Positions 2,944 to 56,719 of a DNA stretch of 64,000 nt are shown here, piece by piece; position 1 is the first letter of the stretch; each line of letters starts with the position of its first letter. Both the position numbers and the translations under genes were made by a program. The DNA comes from an uncultured Chloroflexia bacterium (GTDB taxonomy: Bacteria > Chloroflexota > Limnocylindria > QHBO01): assembly GCA_963825525.1 (NCBI GenBank), contig CAWGTN010000002.1, positions 393,021 to 457,020 on the forward strand, in the 5' to 3' direction. The notes below the pieces were generated by a model. It was not told the origin of the DNA, ran no database searches, and worked only from the letters and a program-made list of their open reading frames with translations.

Positions 2944-3564
2944 GTGAGGTCGCGGCGCACGCTGGGGTGGGCGTTGATCGCCTACGGCATGCTCGGCATC
3001 GCACTCATCGTGGGCGGAGCACCGGCCGGCCTGTCGCTGGCGGCGAGCGTCGAACGACTCGCGGTCACGGCCGACGACACGCTCCGCGCGGCCGTGACGA
3101 GTACCGAGGCCGCCGCGGCAGCATTCGTGAACGTGGATGGCAGTCTCGCTCAGGCGGAGTCATCGGCAGGGTCGGCCGCCCAGCTCTCGCGCGACGCATC
3201 GGGCACGCTGGCCTCACTCGCGGCCGCCATGGAGCTCTCGGTGTTCGGCGTTCAGCCGCTGTTGCCGCTGGCCGGCGAATTCGAGACCAGCGCCAGCCAG
3301 GCATCGGCTCTGGGCGATGAGCTGGCGGATGTGGCGGGTTCGATGGGCGGAACCCGGGAGGACGTGGCCCGCATCGGCACCGAGCTCAGTGGGTTGAGCA
3401 CCGAGCTCGGCAAGCTCAGGGAAGCGGGCGGGAGCGGTAGTGCTCCCCCTCCGATCCGCGCGTTCGTCCTGCTCCTGCTCGCCTGGCTGATGGTTCCGGC
3501 GGTCGGCGGCATCGTGGGTGGCGCCGCGCTCCTCAGATCCGGGATGCCACGCTCAACGACCTGA
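2944..3564 (+). CDS. membrane protein (N- and C-terminal TM helices, Ala/Ser/Glu-rich central region)
   Basis: GTG at 2944 lies 1 nt after the stop of the preceding gene and is preceded by GAGGAT. The product begins MRSRRTLGWALIAYGMLGIALIVGG. The in-frame 5' extension of ORF 2572..3564 is non-protein-like. Confidence 0.55.
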   Translation: MRSRRTLGWALIAYGMLGIALIVGGAPAGLSLAASVERLAVTADDTLRAAVTSTEAAAAAFVNVDGSLAQAESSAGSAAQLSRDASGTLASLAAAMELSVFGVQPLLPLAGEFETSASQASALGDELADVAGSMGGTREDVARIGTELSGLSTELGKLREAGGSGSAPPPIRAFVLLLLAWLMVPAVGGIVGGAALLRSGMPRSTT

Positions 3565-3568
3565 AGGA

Positions 3569-4777
3569 TCAATCGGCGGTGCGGATCACCCGTCGCAGGC
3601 GCAGCAACGCCCCGACATACAACACCACGCCGATCCCGAGCAGCGCGAAGAGCATCCACGGTGTGGTCACCGACCCTCGGAGCATGAGGTCCTGGAGCGT
3701 GGCGATGCCGTGGGTCACCGGCAACGCGTACGCGATGTACTGCATCCACTCGGCGAAATCGCTGACGGGCAGAACGAATCCGGAGAAGAAGACGCTCGCC
3801 AGGAGGATGAGCATGCTCAGCTGCACCGCCTGCCGCTCCGAGTCCGCGACCAGGGAGATCAGCAGCCCGAACCCGAGCGACGCGAACGTCAGCAGCAGCA
3901 CGATCCCGGCGAACATCGCGATGCTCCCGAGCAGGGGAACCCCCAGCACCCCGACCAGCAGCGCGCCAACGATGCCGCTCACCACCAGGCTGAGTGCCGC
4001 GTAGGCCACGTACTTGCCGACAAGAAGCTCCATCGACGTCACCGGGGCCACCCTGAATCGGTCCATCTGGCCGGACAGCCGCTCACGGACCATCGACAGG
4101 GCGGTCAGCGTGATGGCCAGGTGCTGGATCACGAGCGCGAAGACTGCCGGGCCGAAGAAGTTCAGGACCTGCGGCTGCGAGGGCGCCACGTTCTCGGTCT
4201 CGGCCGTCGTGGGCCGCGCAATGACCTCGGGCGGAATGTTGGTGGCGGCCGGCCCCAGCTCACCCTCCGCGAAGTCGATCCCCTCGCCGGCCGCGCGCTC
4301 CACGATCTCGGCATTCAGGCTGCTCACCAGGATCGAGGTGGCCAACGTGGCCAATTGGTCGTAGACCGGGTCGACCTGGTTCCACGCCACGCGGATCGTC
4401 GTCTGGCGCCCAGCACGCAGCTCCTTCTCAGAGTCCTGCGGGACGATGACCAACAGGTCCATCTCGCCGTTGCGGAGGCGCTGTTCGGCCGCCGCACGGT
4501 CCTCGGACACCCGCGTCACTTCGAGGCGGCCGGGGGCCAGGCTCTCGTACGACTCGGCGGATCGCGAGAAGTCGCTTCCAACGGGCACCACGATCTCCGT
4601 GGCGAAGGGGGCGCGGTAGCCGCTGTAGCCGAGTCCGAACAGAAACATCACGAGGAACGGGCCGAGGATGAGGCTGAGGACGACCCCGGGGCGCCGGAGG
4701 ACCTCTCGGAGCTCCTTGCCCGTGAACGAGGCCATGCGGACCACGCTGTGCGAGATGCCCTGCCAGGCGCTACCCAC
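3569..4777 (-). CDS. ABC-2 family transporter permease
   Basis: 402 aa, with an N-terminal TM helix, a large extracytoplasmic loop and five C-terminal TM helices; overlaps the ATPase gene by 8 nt. Confidence 0.85.
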   Translation of the reverse strand: MGSAWQGISHSVVRMASFTGKELREVLRRPGVVLSLILGPFLVMFLFGLGYSGYRAPFATEIVVPVGSDFSRSAESYESLAPGRLEVTRVSEDRAAAEQRLRNGEMDLLVIVPQDSEKELRAGRQTTIRVAWNQVDPVYDQLATLATSILVSSLNAEIVERAAGEGIDFAEGELGPAATNIPPEVIARPTTAETENVAPSQPQVLNFFGPAVFALVIQHLAITLTALSMVRERLSGQMDRFRVAPVTSMELLVGKYVAYAALSLVVSGIVGALLVGVLGVPLLGSIAMFAGIVLLLTFASLGFGLLISLVADSERQAVQLSMLILLASVFFSGFVLPVSDFAEWMQYIAYALPVTHGIATLQDLMLRGSVTTPWMLFALLGIGVVLYVGALLRLRRVIRTAD

Positions 4778-5768
4778 GTGCCTGGTCCTCCAGCGGCTCG
4801 GGAGCGGGTCGTCCCTCGCGCGAGGCTCGCCGGCGCTCGACCAGCCCGGTGAAGACCTCGTCGAAGGTCGGCTGATGCTCCTCGAGACCGGTCACGCCGA
4901 TGCCGGCGCGGCGAAGGGTCTCGATGATCTGCGGCGTGGTGCTCGCGGCGTCCTCGGTCGTGACGATGAGCTTGCGGGCAGCCGGCTGGCGCACTCCGGT
5001 CACACCGGCCACGCTGGCCAGGACATCGGCGTCGACCGCGCGCTCGGTGTTCACCTCCAGCACTTCTCCGCCGAAGACGAGCCGGCGCAGGGCGTCGGGC
5101 GTGTCGAGCGCGACGAGTTCACCATCGGCAATGAGGGCCACCCGGTCGCAGTACTCGGCCTCGGTGACGTACTGCGTCGTGACCACCAGGGTTCGTCCGT
5201 CGTCTCGAAGCGCCCGGAGCTCGTCCCAGATCGCCTGGCGCAGGACCGGATCGATCCCGGCCGTGGGCTCGTCAACGAACAGCACATCCGGGCGGTGGAC
5301 CAGCGCGCAGGCGAGCTCGAGCCGGCGCTGCATGCCGCCTGAGAGGTCGCGCGCCAACCGGTGGCGAGCGTCATAGAGGTCCACGACCTCGAGCGCCCGC
5401 CGGATCTCGCGCCGACGTCGGAACGGCCCGATGCCGTAGAGGGCGGCAACGAACCCGACGTTCTCCTGGGCGGAGAGATCCTCGTACAGGCTGAACAGCT
5501 GGGGCATGTACGCGATGCGCCCGCGCGTCCTGCGGGTGAAGTCCATCGGGTCCTCGCCGAGAACGCTGATCTCACCTTCGTTACGGCCCAGCGTCCCGGT
5601 CAGCATCCGGATGGTCGTGGTCTTGCCCGACCCGCTCGGGCCGACGACGCCGAGGATGGTGCCGCGCTCAACCTCGAACGAGAGGTCATCGACGACGGTG
5701 CGGTCCTCGAAGGCGCGAGTCACGTGGGCGACCGAGATGATCGGTTGCGTGGCTTGTGGTGCGGTCAC
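4770..5768 (-). CDS. ABC transporter ATP-binding protein (ABC-2/DrrA-like with C-terminal extension)
   Basis: Walker A GPSGSGKTT, signature LSGGMQRR and Walker B LFVDEPTAGID. Start chosen at GTG 5768; the upstream 137 codons of the ORF are antisense-type nonsense. Confidence 0.85.
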   Translation of the reverse strand: MTAPQATQPIISVAHVTRAFEDRTVVDDLSFEVERGTILGVVGPSGSGKTTTIRMLTGTLGRNEGEISVLGEDPMDFTRRTRGRIAYMPQLFSLYEDLSAQENVGFVAALYGIGPFRRRREIRRALEVVDLYDARHRLARDLSGGMQRRLELACALVHRPDVLFVDEPTAGIDPVLRQAIWDELRALRDDGRTLVVTTQYVTEAEYCDRVALIADGELVALDTPDALRRLVFGGEVLEVNTERAVDADVLASVAGVTGVRQPAARKLIVTTEDAASTTPQIIETLRRAGIGVTGLEEHQPTFDEVFTGLVERRRASREGRPAPEPLEDQARG

Positions 5769-5903
5769 GGCCGTGCCGAATGCAAGTCGTGTGCCGCCCG
5801 CCGAGCAAGCCCTCGGCGCGAATTGGGATCCCCTGGTCCGGTCCGTTCCGGCATGCGATGTGCCAGTCGAAGCGGTGTAGCCGATGAGGAGACCAGCAAC
5901 CCG

Positions 5904-6155
5904 ATGACCAGCATGACCGCCGACGAGCGTGACGATCTTCGCAAGGACCAGTTCGCCTACGTCGACCGCGAGGGTGGCGAGCACCTGCCGATCCACGACG
6001 AGTCCCACGTGCGAAACGCCATTGCTCGCTTCAACCAGACCGATTTCGAGAGCAAGACGGCCAAGGAGGAGGCGCGCAAGAAGATCCTGCGCGCCGCCGA
6101 TCGGCACGGCATCGAAGTGGACGAGGACAGCAACGTCCGCCAACCGGTGCGCTGA
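5904..6155 (+). CDS. small acidic hypothetical protein, translationally coupled to ku
   Basis: ATG at 5904 preceded by GAGGAG. The 83-aa product begins MTSMTADERDDLRKDQFAYVDREGGEHLPIHDESHVRNAIARFNQ. Its stop TGA shares a base with the ku ATG (TGATG). Confidence 0.6.
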   Translation: MTSMTADERDDLRKDQFAYVDREGGEHLPIHDESHVRNAIARFNQTDFESKTAKEEARKKILRAADRHGIEVDEDSNVRQPVR

Positions 6156-6986
6156 TGCGACCGATCTGGAAGGGCGCAATCAGCTTCGGGATGGTCACCA
6201 TCCCGGTGAAGGTCTACACGGCCACCGAGGGGAAGGACGTGCGGTTCCGGCTCCTCCACAAGACGGACGGAGCGCCGATCGAGGAGAAGCGGTTCTGCAC
6301 CGAGGATGGGAAGGAAGTGGCCTGGGATGACCTCGTCCGTGGATACGAGGTCAGCAAGGGCGAGTTCGTGATCCTGGAGCCCGACGAGATCGACGCAGCC
6401 AAGCCTGAAAGCAGCACGACGATCGACATCGGCGACTTCGTGGAGGCTTCGGAGATCGACGCCGTCTACTTCGAGAAGAGCTACTTCCTCGAGCCGACCG
6501 GGGTCGGTGCCAAGCCCTTCAGCCTCCTGCGCCGCGCGCTCGAGGAGACCGATCGAGTGGCCCTGGCACGCGTGACACTCCGAACCCGGGAGCGGCTCGC
6601 CACGCTCCGCACGTACGAGGACACGCTGCTCCTCGAGACGATGTTCTGGCCCGATGAGATTCGATCGACCGGTGCGCTGGACCTTCCCGAAGGCGAGGAG
6701 GCGCGCGTCCGTGGCAAGGAGCTCGACATGGCGCGAACCCTCATCGGCGATCTGGCCGACCGGTTCCGTCCCGAGCGCTATACCGACACATACCGGACGG
6801 CGCTCGAGAGCCTGATCGAGCAGAAGATGCGGGGCGAGGTAAAGAACTCGAAGCGTCGAAAGGCCGAGCCCAAGGTCATCGACCTCATGGAGGCGCTCAA
6901 GGCGAGTGTTGCGGAGGCCGGCAAGAAGGGCACGAAGCGTCGCTCCGACCGCGGGCCGGCAGAAGAAGCGCCGCTCCGCCGCCTGA
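6155..6986 (+). CDS. ku: Ku family non-homologous end-joining DNA-binding protein; 3' end inferred assuming a 1-nt indel near 6953
   Basis: N-terminus MRPIWKGAISFGMVTIPVKVYTATE is diagnostic. As given, the frame has no stop until 7795 and runs antisense through the convergent gene. A 1-nt change in the GGG run at 6953-6955 yields the K/R-rich tail ...RRSDRGRQKKRRSAA followed by TGA at 6984-6986. Confidence 0.8.
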
Positions 6987-6991
6987 GTCGG

Positions 6992-7672
6992 CTAGAAGCG
7001 CTCCTGCTCTTCCTCGAGGTCGTCGCCGCCGACGCTCCCCGACCGCTCGGGTTCCGCGGATCCGCCGACACCGAGCGTGACGTCCGCCCGCGACGTCCCC
7101 TCCACTTCGCGACGCTCACCCGGAGTGAAGCTGTCGCTCGTGTCGTCGGGCGTCAGGTCGCCGGTGGCGCCGGTCATGCCGCCACCACCGGCGTTGCCGC
7201 GATCGGTCATCGCTGGCTTCCCGCCTCGACCTCGCCGCGCCAGGCGCCCGATCTCGGAGCCGCGGCTCTCGATGAACTCCTTGAAGCGTTCGAGGTCGCC
7301 CTTGACCTGACGGTCGAGGAACCCGAGCGCGCTTCCGACGGTCTCGACCAGTCCCTCTGGGTCAGCGTCCAGCTGCAGGGTCACCCGGGTCGTCTCGTCG
7401 TCGATGCGGTGAAAAGTCACGACGCCGGCGTTATCGGCGCCCGAGGTGGAGTTCCACGCCACGCGCTCGTCGGCATGCTGCTCGGTGACCTCGGCGTCCC
7501 ACTCCTTTTCCTTGCCCGCCACCTCGGCAACCCAATGGAGATGGGTGTCATCGGTCTGCGTGACCGACTTCACGCCTTCCATGAAGTGAGGGAAGTCCTC
7601 GAACTGGGTCCACTGGTTGTAGGCGGTGCTGACGGGCACCTTGACGTCGATGCTCTCTACGACGGAAGCCAT
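6992..7672 (-). CDS. SRPBCC (polyketide cyclase/dehydrase, START-like) family protein with Gly/Asp-rich C-terminal tail
   Basis: ATG at 7672 with GAGGAG 7 nt upstream; product begins MASVVESIDVKVPVSTAYNQWTQFEDFPHFMEGVKSV. Confidence 0.8.
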   Translation of the reverse strand: MASVVESIDVKVPVSTAYNQWTQFEDFPHFMEGVKSVTQTDDTHLHWVAEVAGKEKEWDAEVTEQHADERVAWNSTSGADNAGVVTFHRIDDETTRVTLQLDADPEGLVETVGSALGFLDRQVKGDLERFKEFIESRGSEIGRLARRGRGGKPAMTDRGNAGGGGMTGATGDLTPDDTSDSFTPGERREVEGTSRADVTLGVGGSAEPERSGSVGGDDLEEEQERF

Positions 7673-7840
7673 GGTCGATCTCCTCTGCGCGTGCGGCGCG
7701 ATGCGATACGTGGTTGCCTGACCACCTTGCAAGGGACGCGCCAGCGCGCACCTCCTCCCATCCCGGCTGAGGGCAAAGGGTCCGTATACTCATGAGGCCC
7801 GCCGCCACCCAGCCCGTCCCGATGTGCCCGCGGAGGCTCC

Positions 7841-12688: not shown

Positions 12689-12744
12689 GACTGGCACGGG
12701 CCCTGCGTCGTCCCTCTGGCAAAGCCGAGTACCAGGAGAACCCG

Positions 12745-13317
12745 ATGAACCTCGACGGACTCAAGGTCGCCGTGCTGGTGACCGATGGTTACGAGCCAAG
12801 CGAGCTGACGGAGCCGGTCGCCGCCCTGCAGCAGGCGGGAGCGACCACCACGATCATCTCGAACCACGACGGCACCATCACTGGGAAGACTGATGCCGAC
12901 ACCGCGCAGGTCGACCTCACCCTCGACGGGGCCGATGCTGCCGAGTTCGACGCATTGCTGATCCCCGGCGGCACGAAGAATCCCGACACAATGCGACAGG
13001 AGCCGAAGGCGGTCGATTTCGTGCGCGCCATGTTCGACGCGAAGAAGCCGATGGCCTCCATCTGCCACGGCCCGTGGATGCTCATCGAGGCCGACGTCGT
13101 GCGCGGCCGCCGCGTGACGAGCTACCCCTCGCTGAGGACGGACCTGCGCAACGCCGGCGCCGAGTGGACCGATGAGGAGGTCGTCGTCGACCAGGGCCTC
13201 GTCACGGCCCGCACGCCGAAGGATCTCCCCGCGTTCAACGCCAAGATGGTCGAGGAGTTCGGCGAGGGCACCCACGACCGCCGATCGACGGCCGCCGAGC
13301 CCGTCAGCGCCGGCTGA
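12745..13317 (+). CDS. DJ-1/PfpI family protein (type 1 glutamine amidotransferase-like)
   Basis: ATG at 12745 with AGGAGA upstream; motif ASICHGPWMLIEA. The 5' two-thirds of ORF 12034..13317 are nonsense. Confidence 0.85.
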   Translation: MNLDGLKVAVLVTDGYEPSELTEPVAALQQAGATTTIISNHDGTITGKTDADTAQVDLTLDGADAAEFDALLIPGGTKNPDTMRQEPKAVDFVRAMFDAKKPMASICHGPWMLIEADVVRGRRVTSYPSLRTDLRNAGAEWTDEEVVVDQGLVTARTPKDLPAFNAKMVEEFGEGTHDRRSTAAEPVSAG

Positions 13318-54720: not shown

Positions 54721-55158
54721 TCAGACGAGCGACTTCTCGAAGACGTGACTGCGCTTGGTCTCCACGAACCCCATACGTTCGTAAAAGCGATGCGCACGCG
54801 TCCGCGTGCTGCGCGAGCGGACGAGCATCGTGTCGAGGGCATGACCGCGCGCCCATGCCTCGCCGGCCGAGAGCAGCGCCGTCCCGGTGCCCACCGACCG
54901 TGCATCCTCGTCGACCACCAGGCCGGCGATGAGCGCGCGCTCGGGCTCCTCGAGGGTCGCGTGCCGAAGGACGTGGAGCCAGCCGATCGGGCGATCGGCC
55001 TCGTCAGTGGCCACGAGCAGCAGGTGATCGTCACGATCCATGATCGGCTGTGCGCGACGGAGCATCGCCACCGCGTCCACCGGATACCCGAGCTGCGTGG
55101 TCAGCGCAGCGACCGCCGGGGCGTCATCGGCGCGCATGGGTCGGATCCGCGTCGTCAA
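54721..55158 (-). CDS. GNAT family N-acetyltransferase
   Basis: 145 aa; motif ...RSVGTGTALL... plus C-terminal FYERMGF. Confidence 0.8.
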   Translation of the reverse strand: MTTRIRPMRADDAPAVAALTTQLGYPVDAVAMLRRAQPIMDRDDHLLLVATDEADRPIGWLHVLRHATLEEPERALIAGLVVDEDARSVGTGTALLSAGEAWARGHALDTMLVRSRSTRTRAHRFYERMGFVETKRSHVFEKSLV

Positions 55159-55427
55159 GTGGTGGACGCTGGCTCCGCATCGAGCTCCGCGCCGACCACG
55201 CCTCGCCGGCCGAGCTCGGTGATCGTGAGCTCGGCGTCACGCAGCCGGGTCTCGCATGCCGAGTGGAGCCGCAGCCCGCGCTGATAGAGCTCGATGCTCT
55301 CCTCGAGCCCGGCATCACCGCCCTCGAGCCGCTGGACGGTCGCCTGCAGAGCGACCACCAGCTCATCGAAGGGGCGCTTGGCGAGGTCCTCGTCGCTCAG
55401 TCCGTCGAGGGTTGCGTCATCGATCAT
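55155..55427 (-). CDS. xseB: exodeoxyribonuclease VII small subunit
   Basis: 90 aa, helical, immediately downstream of xseA. Confidence 0.85.
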   Translation of the reverse strand: MIDDATLDGLSDEDLAKRPFDELVVALQATVQRLEGGDAGLEESIELYQRGLRLHSACETRLRDAELTITELGRRGVVGAELDAEPASTT

Positions 55428-56719
55428 GAGAGGAGCTCCTCGGTGCCGTCGGCGCGGGTCTCTTCCACGCGCGTGTCCACGGTACCCCGCGCGACGATGA
55501 CCTGCAGCGGGTCGCCGACCGCGACGCTCGTCGCGTCCCGCACGATTCGCCCGTCCGCGGCGCGGGCCACGGCATAGCCCCGCTCGAGCGTGGCCAGCGG
55601 CGAGAGAGTACGGAGCGTGGCGTGGGCCGTATCGACCAGCATGCGGCGTTGCATCGTTCGCTGGCTGACGGCGCGAAGTCCACGCTCGAGGAGGTCCGAG
55701 GTTCGCTGGCGTGCAGACCCGATGTCCGGTGCGAGCCCGGCCAGTGCCCGGCGCTCGGCATCGAGCCGGCGCCGCCGCTCGGCCGCTCGGCCGGTGAGGG
55801 CAGCCGTGGACCGATCGCGCATGCGGCCGATGACCGAGGCGAGCTGGGTCGCGTCGGGGGTGGCGAGCTCGGCGGCAGCGCTGGGAGTCGGAGCCCGCAG
55901 GTCCGCGGCAAAGTCTGCCAGCGTCACGTCGGACTCGTGGCCGACGCCCACGATGATCGGCACCGGTGACGCGGCGACAGACCGCACGACCTTCTCATCG
56001 TTGAAGCACCACAGGTCCTCGAGCGAGCCGCCTCCGCGCGCCAGGATGATCGTGTCGAGATCCGGCTGGGCATACAGCCGCTCCAGCGCCCGCACCACGG
56101 CCGGGGCCGCCGTGACGCCCTGCACCACGGTCGGCGACAGGACCAGCTCGGCCAGCGGGTAGCGCCGCCGCAGAACGTTGGTGATATCACGCCAGACGGC
56201 TCCCACGGGCGATGTCACCACGCCGATGCGACGCGGCCAACGCGGGATCGGGCGCTTGCGCGATTCCTCGAACAGGCCGGCCGCGGCCAGCTCGACTCGC
56301 AGCGCCTCGTAGCGGGCGTGGAGATCGCCGGCGCCCGCGGCGGTGATGGTGTCGACGTACAGCTGGTAGACGCCCTGCGGCTCGTACGCGCGCACCCGAC
56401 CGTGGATGATCACGTTCATGCCATGGACCGGACGCATCCCGGACCGGGTGAGCTCCTCGCGGAACAGGGCCGCGCGAAGCTGGCTGTTGGCGTCCTTCAG
56501 GGTGAAGAAGCAATGGCCGGAGGCGGGAAACGATGGCTGGCTGATCTCACCCTCGACCCACACGTCGGCGAGGACCGCATCGCTGTCGAGCAGGCTTCGA
56601 ACTCGACGATTGAGGTCCGTCACGCGAAGGATGCGCGGGGTCGCCCGGATCGGCGTCGACTCCGGCTCCGTCTCGGGTTTCGCCTGGTCCCAGATGCTCG
56701 GCTGGTCCGGAGAGCCCAT
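55424..56719 (-). CDS. xseA: exodeoxyribonuclease VII large subunit
   Basis: OB-fold N-terminus followed by ...RGGGSLEDLWCFNDE... Confidence 0.9.
   Translation of the reverse strand: MGSPDQPSIWDQAKPETEPESTPIRATPRILRVTDLNRRVRSLLDSDAVLADVWVEGEISQPSFPASGHCFFTLKDANSQLRAALFREELTRSGMRPVHGMNVIIHGRVRAYEPQGVYQLYVDTITAAGAGDLHARYEALRVELAAAGLFEESRKRPIPRWPRRIGVVTSPVGAVWRDITNVLRRRYPLAELVLSPTVVQGVTAAPAVVRALERLYAQPDLDTIILARGGGSLEDLWCFNDEKVVRSVAASPVPIIVGVGHESDVTLADFAADLRAPTPSAAAELATPDATQLASVIGRMRDRSTAALTGRAAERRRRLDAERRALAGLAPDIGSARQRTSDLLERGLRAVSQRTMQRRMLVDTAHATLRTLSPLATLERGYAVARAADGRIVRDATSVAVGDPLQVIVARGTVDTRVEETRADGTEELLS

Follow-up and report, generated by a model that had tools for sequence, protein, structure and literature searches.

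The usual account of end joining in bacteria involves two proteins, Ku and LigD. A ku gene in a 64-kb stretch of DNA from a Limnocylindria-type Chloroflexota bacterium (hereafter, the window) has no ligD beside it; instead, its start codon overlaps the stop codon of a gene for an 83-residue protein, which raises the question of what this small protein is and whether it works with Ku. We found that the protein belongs to a known but uncharacterised family, DUF6582, that the two genes form a two-gene operon on an ordinary chromosome and that this operon is a conserved feature of one Ku lineage. The result is an unusual non-homologous end joining (NHEJ) locus, in which ku lacks ligD, is coupled to DUF6582 and lies behind a sigma-54-like element. 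In the reading that we favour, at about an even chance, DUF6582 is a small protein of the stress or DNA-damage response that is co-expressed with Ku and is not an obligate Ku subunit.

The window has a GC content of 69% and is crowded with overlapping chance open reading frames (ORFs), but both genes are genuine. The small ORF has a coding-type codon signature, with a G+C fraction of 0.86 at third codon positions (GC3) and of 0.38 at second positions (GC2); the in-frame extension upstream of its start codon (5361-5903) has a GC3 of 0.66 and lies mostly over a gene on the minus strand. Among 85 orthologues, the ratio of non-synonymous to synonymous substitution rates (dN/dS) of the small gene was about 0.25, which indicates purifying selection, and Ku passed the equivalog test of TIGR02772 with a score above the cut-off (Table 1). 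A sequence-only reading of this DNA had proposed that the small protein has its own ribosome-binding site and that its TGA overlaps the ATG of ku. This description held up: the ORF encodes exactly the residues that were quoted, a GAGGAG site precedes it and the TGATG overlap is present, and we found no purine-rich Shine-Dalgarno site in the 18 nt preceding the ku ATG. In relatives, GGAG-type sites stand before DUF6582 at the same position as the GAGGAG of the window. The TGATG junction is identical in L001-L005, and in other species the two genes are separated by 2-22 nt, with a GGAGG-like site inside several of these gaps. Across 22 loci the junction gap ranged from -1 to +22 nt, as would be expected if the small ORF is conserved and co-operonic with ku. 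Scans of positions 5600-7200 found neither a sigma-70 promoter nor an intrinsic terminator.

The sequence-only reading had not recognised the family of the small protein, but it is catalogued: the protein scored 41.7 bits against the Pfam model DUF6582 (PF20223; cut-off 27.3), with residues 3-75 aligned to positions 2-83 of 83 in the model, and it also matched phrog_16160. PF20223 was present in all of the best 120 homologues. We found 3213 homologues at E <= 1e-3 in a protein database clustered at 90% identity, and 1005 DUF6582 representatives among clusters at 50%. Family alignments share the core motif FAYVD..G..HLPI.D..HVRNA.ARFNQT.F; residues A18, D21, L28, P29 and A65 are invariant, and F17, Y19, G24, D32, R37, R42, Q45, T46 and F48 are nearly so. 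AlphaFold2, run on an alignment of 35 sequences, predicted a beta-hairpin (residues 17-20 and 26-29) followed by helices at 33-43 and 51-68, with a predicted local distance difference test (pLDDT) score of 81.6, and no DNA-binding or known regulator fold was detected in the small protein. The window copy is acidic, as the sequence-only reading had noted (isoelectric point (pI) 5.5), but this is not true of the family in general, in which core pI values span 4.5 to 11.5 and the C-terminal tails of several members are strongly basic, with a net charge of +10 to +20. The window protein is a plain member of Pfam DUF6582 and PHROG 16160 (the 'DUF6582 domain-containing protein' of NCBI), with no structural difference from them. 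What is new about it is its context, an operon with ku, in a family catalogued as being of unknown function. Within the literature library that was searched, no paper mentioned DUF6582 or PF20223, and no PADLOC model matched the small protein, Ku or the SRPBCC and DJ-1/PfpI proteins encoded in the window.

Linkage between the two genes is strong from the Ku side and weak from the DUF6582 side; it is lineage-specific and asymmetric. On the Ku side, a metagenome search with the window Ku yielded 64 loci in which the region upstream of ku was long enough to be assessed. In 36 of them, Ku shares 67% identity or more with the window Ku; ku is directly preceded by DUF6582 in 30 of these, all with a Ku of at least 73% identity. 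The other 28, in which Ku identity does not exceed 59%, have no DUF6582 there. The sequence-only reading had allowed that the small ORF might prove absent beside ku in related genomes, or unconserved, which is not what these close orthologues show. On the DUF6582 side, a scan with one genome per species and a tighter alignment gave 556 confirmed loci, of which the best 80 were used; nearly all of these come from metagenome-assembled genomes of Limnocylindria or other Chloroflexota, at 66-86% identity. Of about 77 evaluable Limnocylindria loci, 18 had a co-oriented ku as the next gene, at a gap of -1 to +22 nt. These counts describe adjacency and not whole genomes, and at the level of adjacency DUF6582 and Ku do not occur together obligately. 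Where ku is missing, the gene downstream of DUF6582 varies. Six loci retain the synteny of the window without ku and have the SRPBCC gene next (L006, L013, L016, L017, L021 and L033), in five others CopCD comes next (L059, L072, L075, L077 and L081), and in L020 only a remnant of ku is left. Members with and without an adjacent ku were interleaved within one clade when the small proteins were arranged in a neighbour-joining tree. The dN/dS of DUF6582 was 0.247 where ku is present, 0.207 where the synteny is the same but ku is missing, and 0.248 in the remaining loci.

The absence of LigD from the window, also noted in the sequence-only reading, was confirmed. A tblastn search of the 64 kb with four LigD proteins from ku-adjacent metagenome loci gave a best E value of 0.13; of these queries, the one from L148 is a full-length LigD verified by Pfam, with Prim-Pol, phosphoesterase and ligase domains (Pol-PE-Lig). 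None of the four queries had a match in any Limnocylindria flank. Judged by whether LigD is encoded near ku, the window does not hold a two-gene NHEJ locus. The window Ku shares its core domain, its C-terminal VIDLMEALKASV segment and its short basic tail with Ku of the canonical locus found in Mycobacterium, Bacillus and Pseudomonas; in that locus ligD lies beside ku, whereas the window ku neighbours DUF6582. LigD must be encoded elsewhere in the genome or be replaced by something else. Among the 28 distant Ku loci, a LigD match adjoins ku in 24; wherever the match is long enough to tell, it is close by on the upstream side of ku and on the other strand. The metagenome loci L137-L169, whose Ku is about 50% identical to that of the window, have a LigD match beside ku and lack DUF6582, which makes them a useful contrast set; several of their matches span a full-length LigD of about 860-920 residues in Pol-PE-Lig order.

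These data bear on the idea of a dedicated accessory factor for Ku, a role for which the sequence-only reading had named the small protein as a candidate. Such a factor might bind the Ku dimer or Ku-bound ends, where it would tune end binding or bridging or recruit a ligase in place of an adjacent LigD, with the coupled junction setting its stoichiometry. It would account for the stop/start overlap in front of a ku without a Shine-Dalgarno site, for the tight junctions in 22 loci and for the small gene upstream of 30 of 36 close Ku orthologues, but it leaves unexplained why about three-quarters of Limnocylindria DUF6582 genes have no adjacent ku and why ku was lost repeatedly from the same slot while selection on DUF6582 was not relaxed. 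The Ku loci linked to DUF6582 have no LigD nearby and the Ku lineages free of DUF6582 have an adjacent LigD match, and on a Sphingomonas plasmid described below a DUF6582 gene ends a ligD-xth-NUDIX string, both of which would suit a partner in end joining; yet some ku orthologues sit behind the same promoter-like element without DUF6582, no fusion of Ku and DUF6582 occurs in 82 long representatives, no Ku is encoded in 80 viral loci and no Ku was found near the DUF6582 copies examined outside Limnocylindria. The distribution of DUF6582 (about 18 of 77 loci with ku, slots from which ku is missing and 0 of 28 in the other Ku lineages) is not that of a dedicated Ku accessory factor, and its independence of Ku, together with the unchanged selective constraint, provides the main arguments against a dedicated subunit. 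The part of the proposal that stands is that a conserved gene shares an operon with ku; the dedicated factor is not supported, and we regard it as possible but doubtful.

We next consider the element in front of the operon. In 45 of the 80 loci, the DUF6582 ATG is preceded by the 14-nt sequence GGCAYG-N5-TGC at a distance of 46-90 nt, most often 49-64 nt. It is present in all 19 ku-linked DUF6582 loci and in 26 of the 61 others, and it precedes all 26 metagenome DUF6582-ku pairs. Five close ku orthologues without DUF6582 (L093, L103, L109, L120 and L124) have the element directly in front of ku. A census of about 1.03 Mb of Limnocylindria DNA yielded 174 matches, whereas reversed-sequence controls yielded 49 and altered spacings 22-68. 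DUF6582 follows 69 of the sites and ku follows eight, and the other genes behind the element include the divergent ABC ATPase gene, DUF72, SRPBCC and DJ-1/PfpI. The distance from the element to the start codon is 35-42 nt for DUF6582, compared with 12-14 nt for the ABC ATPase gene, DUF72 and other genes; 45 of the 66 sites that do not precede DUF6582 have a start codon 12-14 nt after the element. Within the window, a scan allowing one mismatch was uninformative (50 matches versus 68 expected), and only exact or positionally conserved copies were counted. The divergent copy in front of the ABC ATPase gene has orthologous counterparts in more than 25 loci, where GGCACG-N4-TTGC stands 12-14 nt ahead of the same GTGAC start. 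The copy in front of the SRPBCC gene is weak in the window, and exact copies lie upstream of SRPBCC orthologues in L029, L058 and L066. The arrangement of element and DJ-1/PfpI gene recurs in L017 and L025. The element seems to define a small, locally clustered regulon made up of the ABC-2 exporter, DUF72, DUF6582, ku, SRPBCC and DJ-1/PfpI, the content of which looks like that of a stress response. In L111, a 60-residue, highly charged protein (MPEEWSDKRERQYEHIKDSYEDRG...) without a Pfam match is encoded behind the element at 3330-3560 (+), downstream of the DUF6582-ku pair, and it may be another member of this regulon.

Sigma-54 (RpoN) promoters have the -24/-12 consensus TGGCACG-N4-TTGCW. 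The element resembles them in the GG-N10-GC spacing and in the sequence GGCACG, and the copies in front of the ABC gene read GGCACG-N4-TTGC(A/T). Its fixed distance from the start codon would fit transcription beginning about 12 nt beyond the GC; with a start codon 12-14 nt after the GC, transcripts would be essentially leaderless, and this would apply to many targets of the element. The DUF6582 copy departs from the consensus in reading (A/G/C)TGC(C/G), which is degenerate at -12. A published survey reported sigma-54 only in 'some Chloroflexi' (PMC3162934).

Outside Limnocylindria, DUF6582 was found beside DNA-repair genes other than ku. On a plasmid of Sphingomonas psychrotolerans (NZ_CP024924.1; L088 21-3258, across the record origin), ligD, xth, a NUDIX gene and DUF6582 follow one another in the same direction with small gaps. 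This ligD encodes ligase and Prim-Pol in one frame, and two SRAP genes come after DUF6582; the ligD is absent from the PLSDB gene table because it crosses or abuts the start of the record. In five Sphingomonadales loci on chromosomes and contigs (L256 and L258-L261), DUF6582 lies between two SRAP genes and a cassette of ImuB-type (IMS/DUF6504) and DnaE2 genes. Genes for DksA/TraR-like and AlkB-like proteins are found a few genes further on in L258, L260 and L261, and L256 has only the DksA/TraR-like gene. A gene for a 258-residue protein without a Pfam match lies between DUF6582 and ImuB in L258 and L260-L261, and L259 has, in addition, an IS110-type transposase gene inserted ahead of it. In L256, DnaE2 directly follows DUF6582 on the opposite strand and an integrase gene is nearby, so the Sphingomonadales neighbourhood may be a mobile DNA-damage island. 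In all five loci, GAAC-N17-CGTT stands about 30-55 nt upstream of the DUF6582 ATG and is conserved between upstream regions that have otherwise diverged; we take it to resemble the alphaproteobacterial EcfG general-stress promoter (GGAAC-N16-17-CGTT). LexA-box and RDRM-type patterns were not found upstream of the Sphingomonadales and Deinococcus copies of DUF6582.

DUF6582 is also found in viruses, in a different form. One phage among isolated phage genomes matched the family, as did 4-6 plasmid records. In viral contigs (L176-L255), each of the 80 copies of DUF6582 is embedded in a larger ORF of 142-720 residues; apart from one that is cut by the end of its contig, these ORFs have at least 236 residues. 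Of nine such ORFs tested, seven matched head-maturation protease families (PHROGs) and five matched Peptidase_S78 (Pfam). The 82 long cluster representatives (within P0129-P0269) include 15 with Peptidase_S78, seven with Mu-like_Pro and five with an XkdF-type protease; a few carry zinc ribbons, ChaB or HNH. No Ku or LigD domain was found in these representatives, nor was LigD encoded in the 80 viral loci. Phage prohead serine proteases (Peptidase_S78 or Mu gpI-like) carry the same domain of about 70 residues as the window protein. The protease domain is confined to the phage proteins or long homologues, whereas the window protein consists of the DUF6582 domain alone and no phage gene is present in the window.

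How might the operon work? We propose that DUF6582 and ku are co-transcribed from the GGCAYG-N5-TGC element, as the anatomy of the locus suggests, and that synthesis of Ku would depend on ribosomes arriving straight from translating the small gene, so that both proteins would be made together in a fixed ratio. DUF6582 itself would be induced by stress or DNA damage and, judging by the company it keeps, would act at or close to damaged DNA or the complexes that repair it. Its repair neighbours in two phyla (Ku in Chloroflexota; LigD/Xth/NUDIX, SRAP and ImuB/DnaE2 in Alphaproteobacteria) provide the main argument for a role in DNA damage. In the Limnocylindria lineage, ku may have been placed behind DUF6582 and later lost repeatedly, with both genes answering the same signal. 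On this view the two genes would share an operon because they are regulated together, and perhaps because their products act at the same place, and not because the proteins form an obligate complex. NHEJ in Sinorhizobium meliloti is reportedly induced via the general stress response. The likeness to our locus is conceptual only, in that NHEJ genes would belong to a stress-induced programme rather than being expressed constitutively; organism, regulator and promoter type all differ. The title and abstract of the report on stress-inducible NHEJ in that species (PMC6379672) mention no DUF6582.

Several points weigh against a stress or DNA-damage protein expressed with Ku from such an element. The tie of DUF6582 to DNA or to Ku is, as far as these genomes go, one of genomic association. 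The occupancy of 83% upstream of close Ku orthologues would also fit a true partnership. No repair neighbours of DUF6582 were found in two Deinococcus plasmids, in S. daechungensis, in Novosphingobium G106 or in metagenome contig P0154. Three divergent stand-alone representatives (P0141, P0143 and P0146) lie on contigs that are too short to reveal a gene neighbourhood. The setting of the viral copies within larger ORFs, most of which carry a head-maturation protease domain among those tested, is not accounted for by a stress protein, nor by a Ku subunit. The sigma-54 reading of the element, which is a matter of geometry, is not established: GGCAYG-N5-TGC is invariant in the 45 sites, but the T that precedes GG in the sigma-54 consensus is not conserved, and RpoN-box, GAFTGA and Walker-A signatures were absent from six-frame translations of the window and the loci.

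Compared with the Ku-LigD scheme, a whole Ku lineage in an abundant soil and freshwater class is wired differently, with no adjacent LigD, with translation apparently coupled to a conserved DUF6582 and with a promoter-like element shared with stress-type genes. The presence of DUF6582 beside LigD, translesion-synthesis and SRAP genes in unrelated bacteria provides a first functional lead for the family, towards DNA damage or stress. Should the element truly be of the sigma-54 type, it would also mark out a compact regulon, with leaderless transcripts, in a phylum that has been little studied.

A more ambitious possibility is that DUF6582 is an unrecognised repair adaptor that binds Ku, LigD-type enzymes or both, or broken DNA. 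It would have been recruited independently to ku, to ligD-xth-NUDIX and to SRAP/ImuB/DnaE2, phages would package the module on their head proteases to act on host end processing at infection, and in Limnocylindria a sigma-54-type promoter, whose regulon includes leaderless transcripts, would drive DUF6582 together with ku. We consider this combination of proposals unlikely. The opposite possibility is that DUF6582 and ku are chance neighbours in one clade without a functional relation and that DUF6582 is a generic small stress protein. All ku-linked cases do come from one class, and mostly from one clade of the DUF6582 tree, and elsewhere the contexts of DUF6582 are heterogeneous (ALDH, DEAD-box helicase, GDE and CopCD genes); chance, however, would hardly hold the junction at -1 to +22 nt across proteins that are 69-99% identical while the flanks change, let ku inherit the same element where DUF6582 is deleted or place DUF6582 in independent repair neighbourhoods in Alphaproteobacteria. 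Synteny alone is thus quite unlikely as an explanation. It is also improbable that DUF6582 is a small autoregulated regulator, such as one that modulates the sigma factor or activator recognising GGCAYG-N5-TGC, with ku among its targets. Small size, a helical structure and many conserved polar residues would suit such a role, the DUF6582 gene is the first of the operon, and the element lies upstream of several neighbouring genes as well as of DUF6582 in 45 of 80 loci. The same count leaves 35 DUF6582 genes of that class without the element, no DNA-binding or known regulator fold was detected, and viral copies that are all embedded in larger ORFs, mostly head-maturation proteases among those tested, are hard to square with a regulator of host transcription. 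Finally, that the small ORF is not a gene but a leader peptide, a prophage fragment or one of the chance ORFs in which this GC-rich window abounds, a thought prompted also by the domain's occurrence in phage protease fusions, is effectively refuted by the Pfam score above the curated cut-off, the 3213 homologues, the GC3/GC2 signature, a dN/dS of about 0.25, the confident fold prediction and the lack of phage genes in the window.

The sequence-only reading had ku end at position 6986, but no stop codon in the ku frame lies at 6984-6986. The interval from the ATG to this position is 832 nt long, which is not a multiple of three, and the frame of the ATG stays open until a stop at 7795, running through 270 codons antisense to the SRPBCC gene. 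Alignment with L002 and L003 placed an extra base at about 6947, 13 codons ahead of the normal ku stop, and three-frame translation showed that this insertion shifts the last 13 codons of ku (TAGRQKKRRSAA*). In L002 and L003, genomes whose small proteins are 98-99% identical to that of the window, Ku has 276 residues, and removing one base near 6947 restores a 276-residue Ku in the window as well; the alternate frame ends in ...TAGRQKKRRSAA*, a typical basic Ku tail. As given, the window ku does not have an intact frame ending at the usual C-terminal basic tail of bacterial Ku. The extra base would be either an assembly indel or a recent true frameshift. The split genes of L002 (ERZ25039476 contig_2968), the nearest relative, bear on this reading: its ABC-2 permease is split into 115 and 78 residues and its CopCD into 448 and 291 residues, which suggests indel errors in long-contig assemblies of this kind.

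Table 1. Positions of the DUF6582-ku operon, the promoter-like elements and the adjoining genes in the 64-kb window
Feature	Position	Strand	Evidence or remark
DUF6582 (PF20223) gene, 83 residues	5904-6155	+	Pfam, homologues, GC3, dN/dS, AlphaFold2 model
Shine-Dalgarno site GAGGAG of the small gene	5886-5891	+	Direct reading; 12 nt before ATG
TGATG stop/start overlap	6153-6157	+	TGA 6153-6155 shares its A with ku ATG 6155-6157
ku (bacterial Ku)	6155-6986	+	TIGR02772 319.8 bits (cut-off 150); PF02735 E = 2e-51
One-nucleotide insertion site in ku	6944-6955	+	GACCGCGGGCC in the window versus ACCACCGGCC or AGCGCCGGCC in L002/L003; DNA alignment
Promoter-like element GGCATGCGATGTGC (GG-N10-GC, sigma-54-like -24/-12 spacing)	5850-5863	+	Exact match; 5' end 54 nt upstream of DUF6582 ATG
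Second, divergent copy of the element, GGCACACGACTTGC	5782-5795	-	One mismatch; 13 nt before ABC ATPase GTG (5768)
Weak copy of the element	7729-7742	-	One mismatch; in front of SRPBCC gene
Element GGCACGGGCCCTGC (12693-12706) and, 38 nt on, DJ-1/PfpI gene (12745-13317)	12693-13317	+	PF01965 E = 1.4e-54
Divergent ABC-2 exporter operon: ATPase 4770-5768, permease 3569-4777	3569-5768	-	Pfam ABC_tran, DrrA1-3_C; ABC2_membrane families
Convergent SRPBCC (polyketide cyclase-like) gene	6992-7672	-	PF03364 E = 6.7e-20; stop 5 nt from normal ku stop

The remaining window genes that we identified encode SBP_bac_5, ETF alpha and beta, acyl-CoA dehydrogenase, the Der GTPase, Dxs, YceG and Xaa-Pro peptidase, together with CopC, CopD and cytochrome c, which were named by synteny with L003. 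Among the scanned window ORFs, the only other DNA-metabolism gene is that for the large subunit of exonuclease VII at 55155-56719 (-), which has no evident link to the ku locus. Pfam confirmed its identity, and it is followed by an ORF of 90 residues in the position expected for the small subunit.

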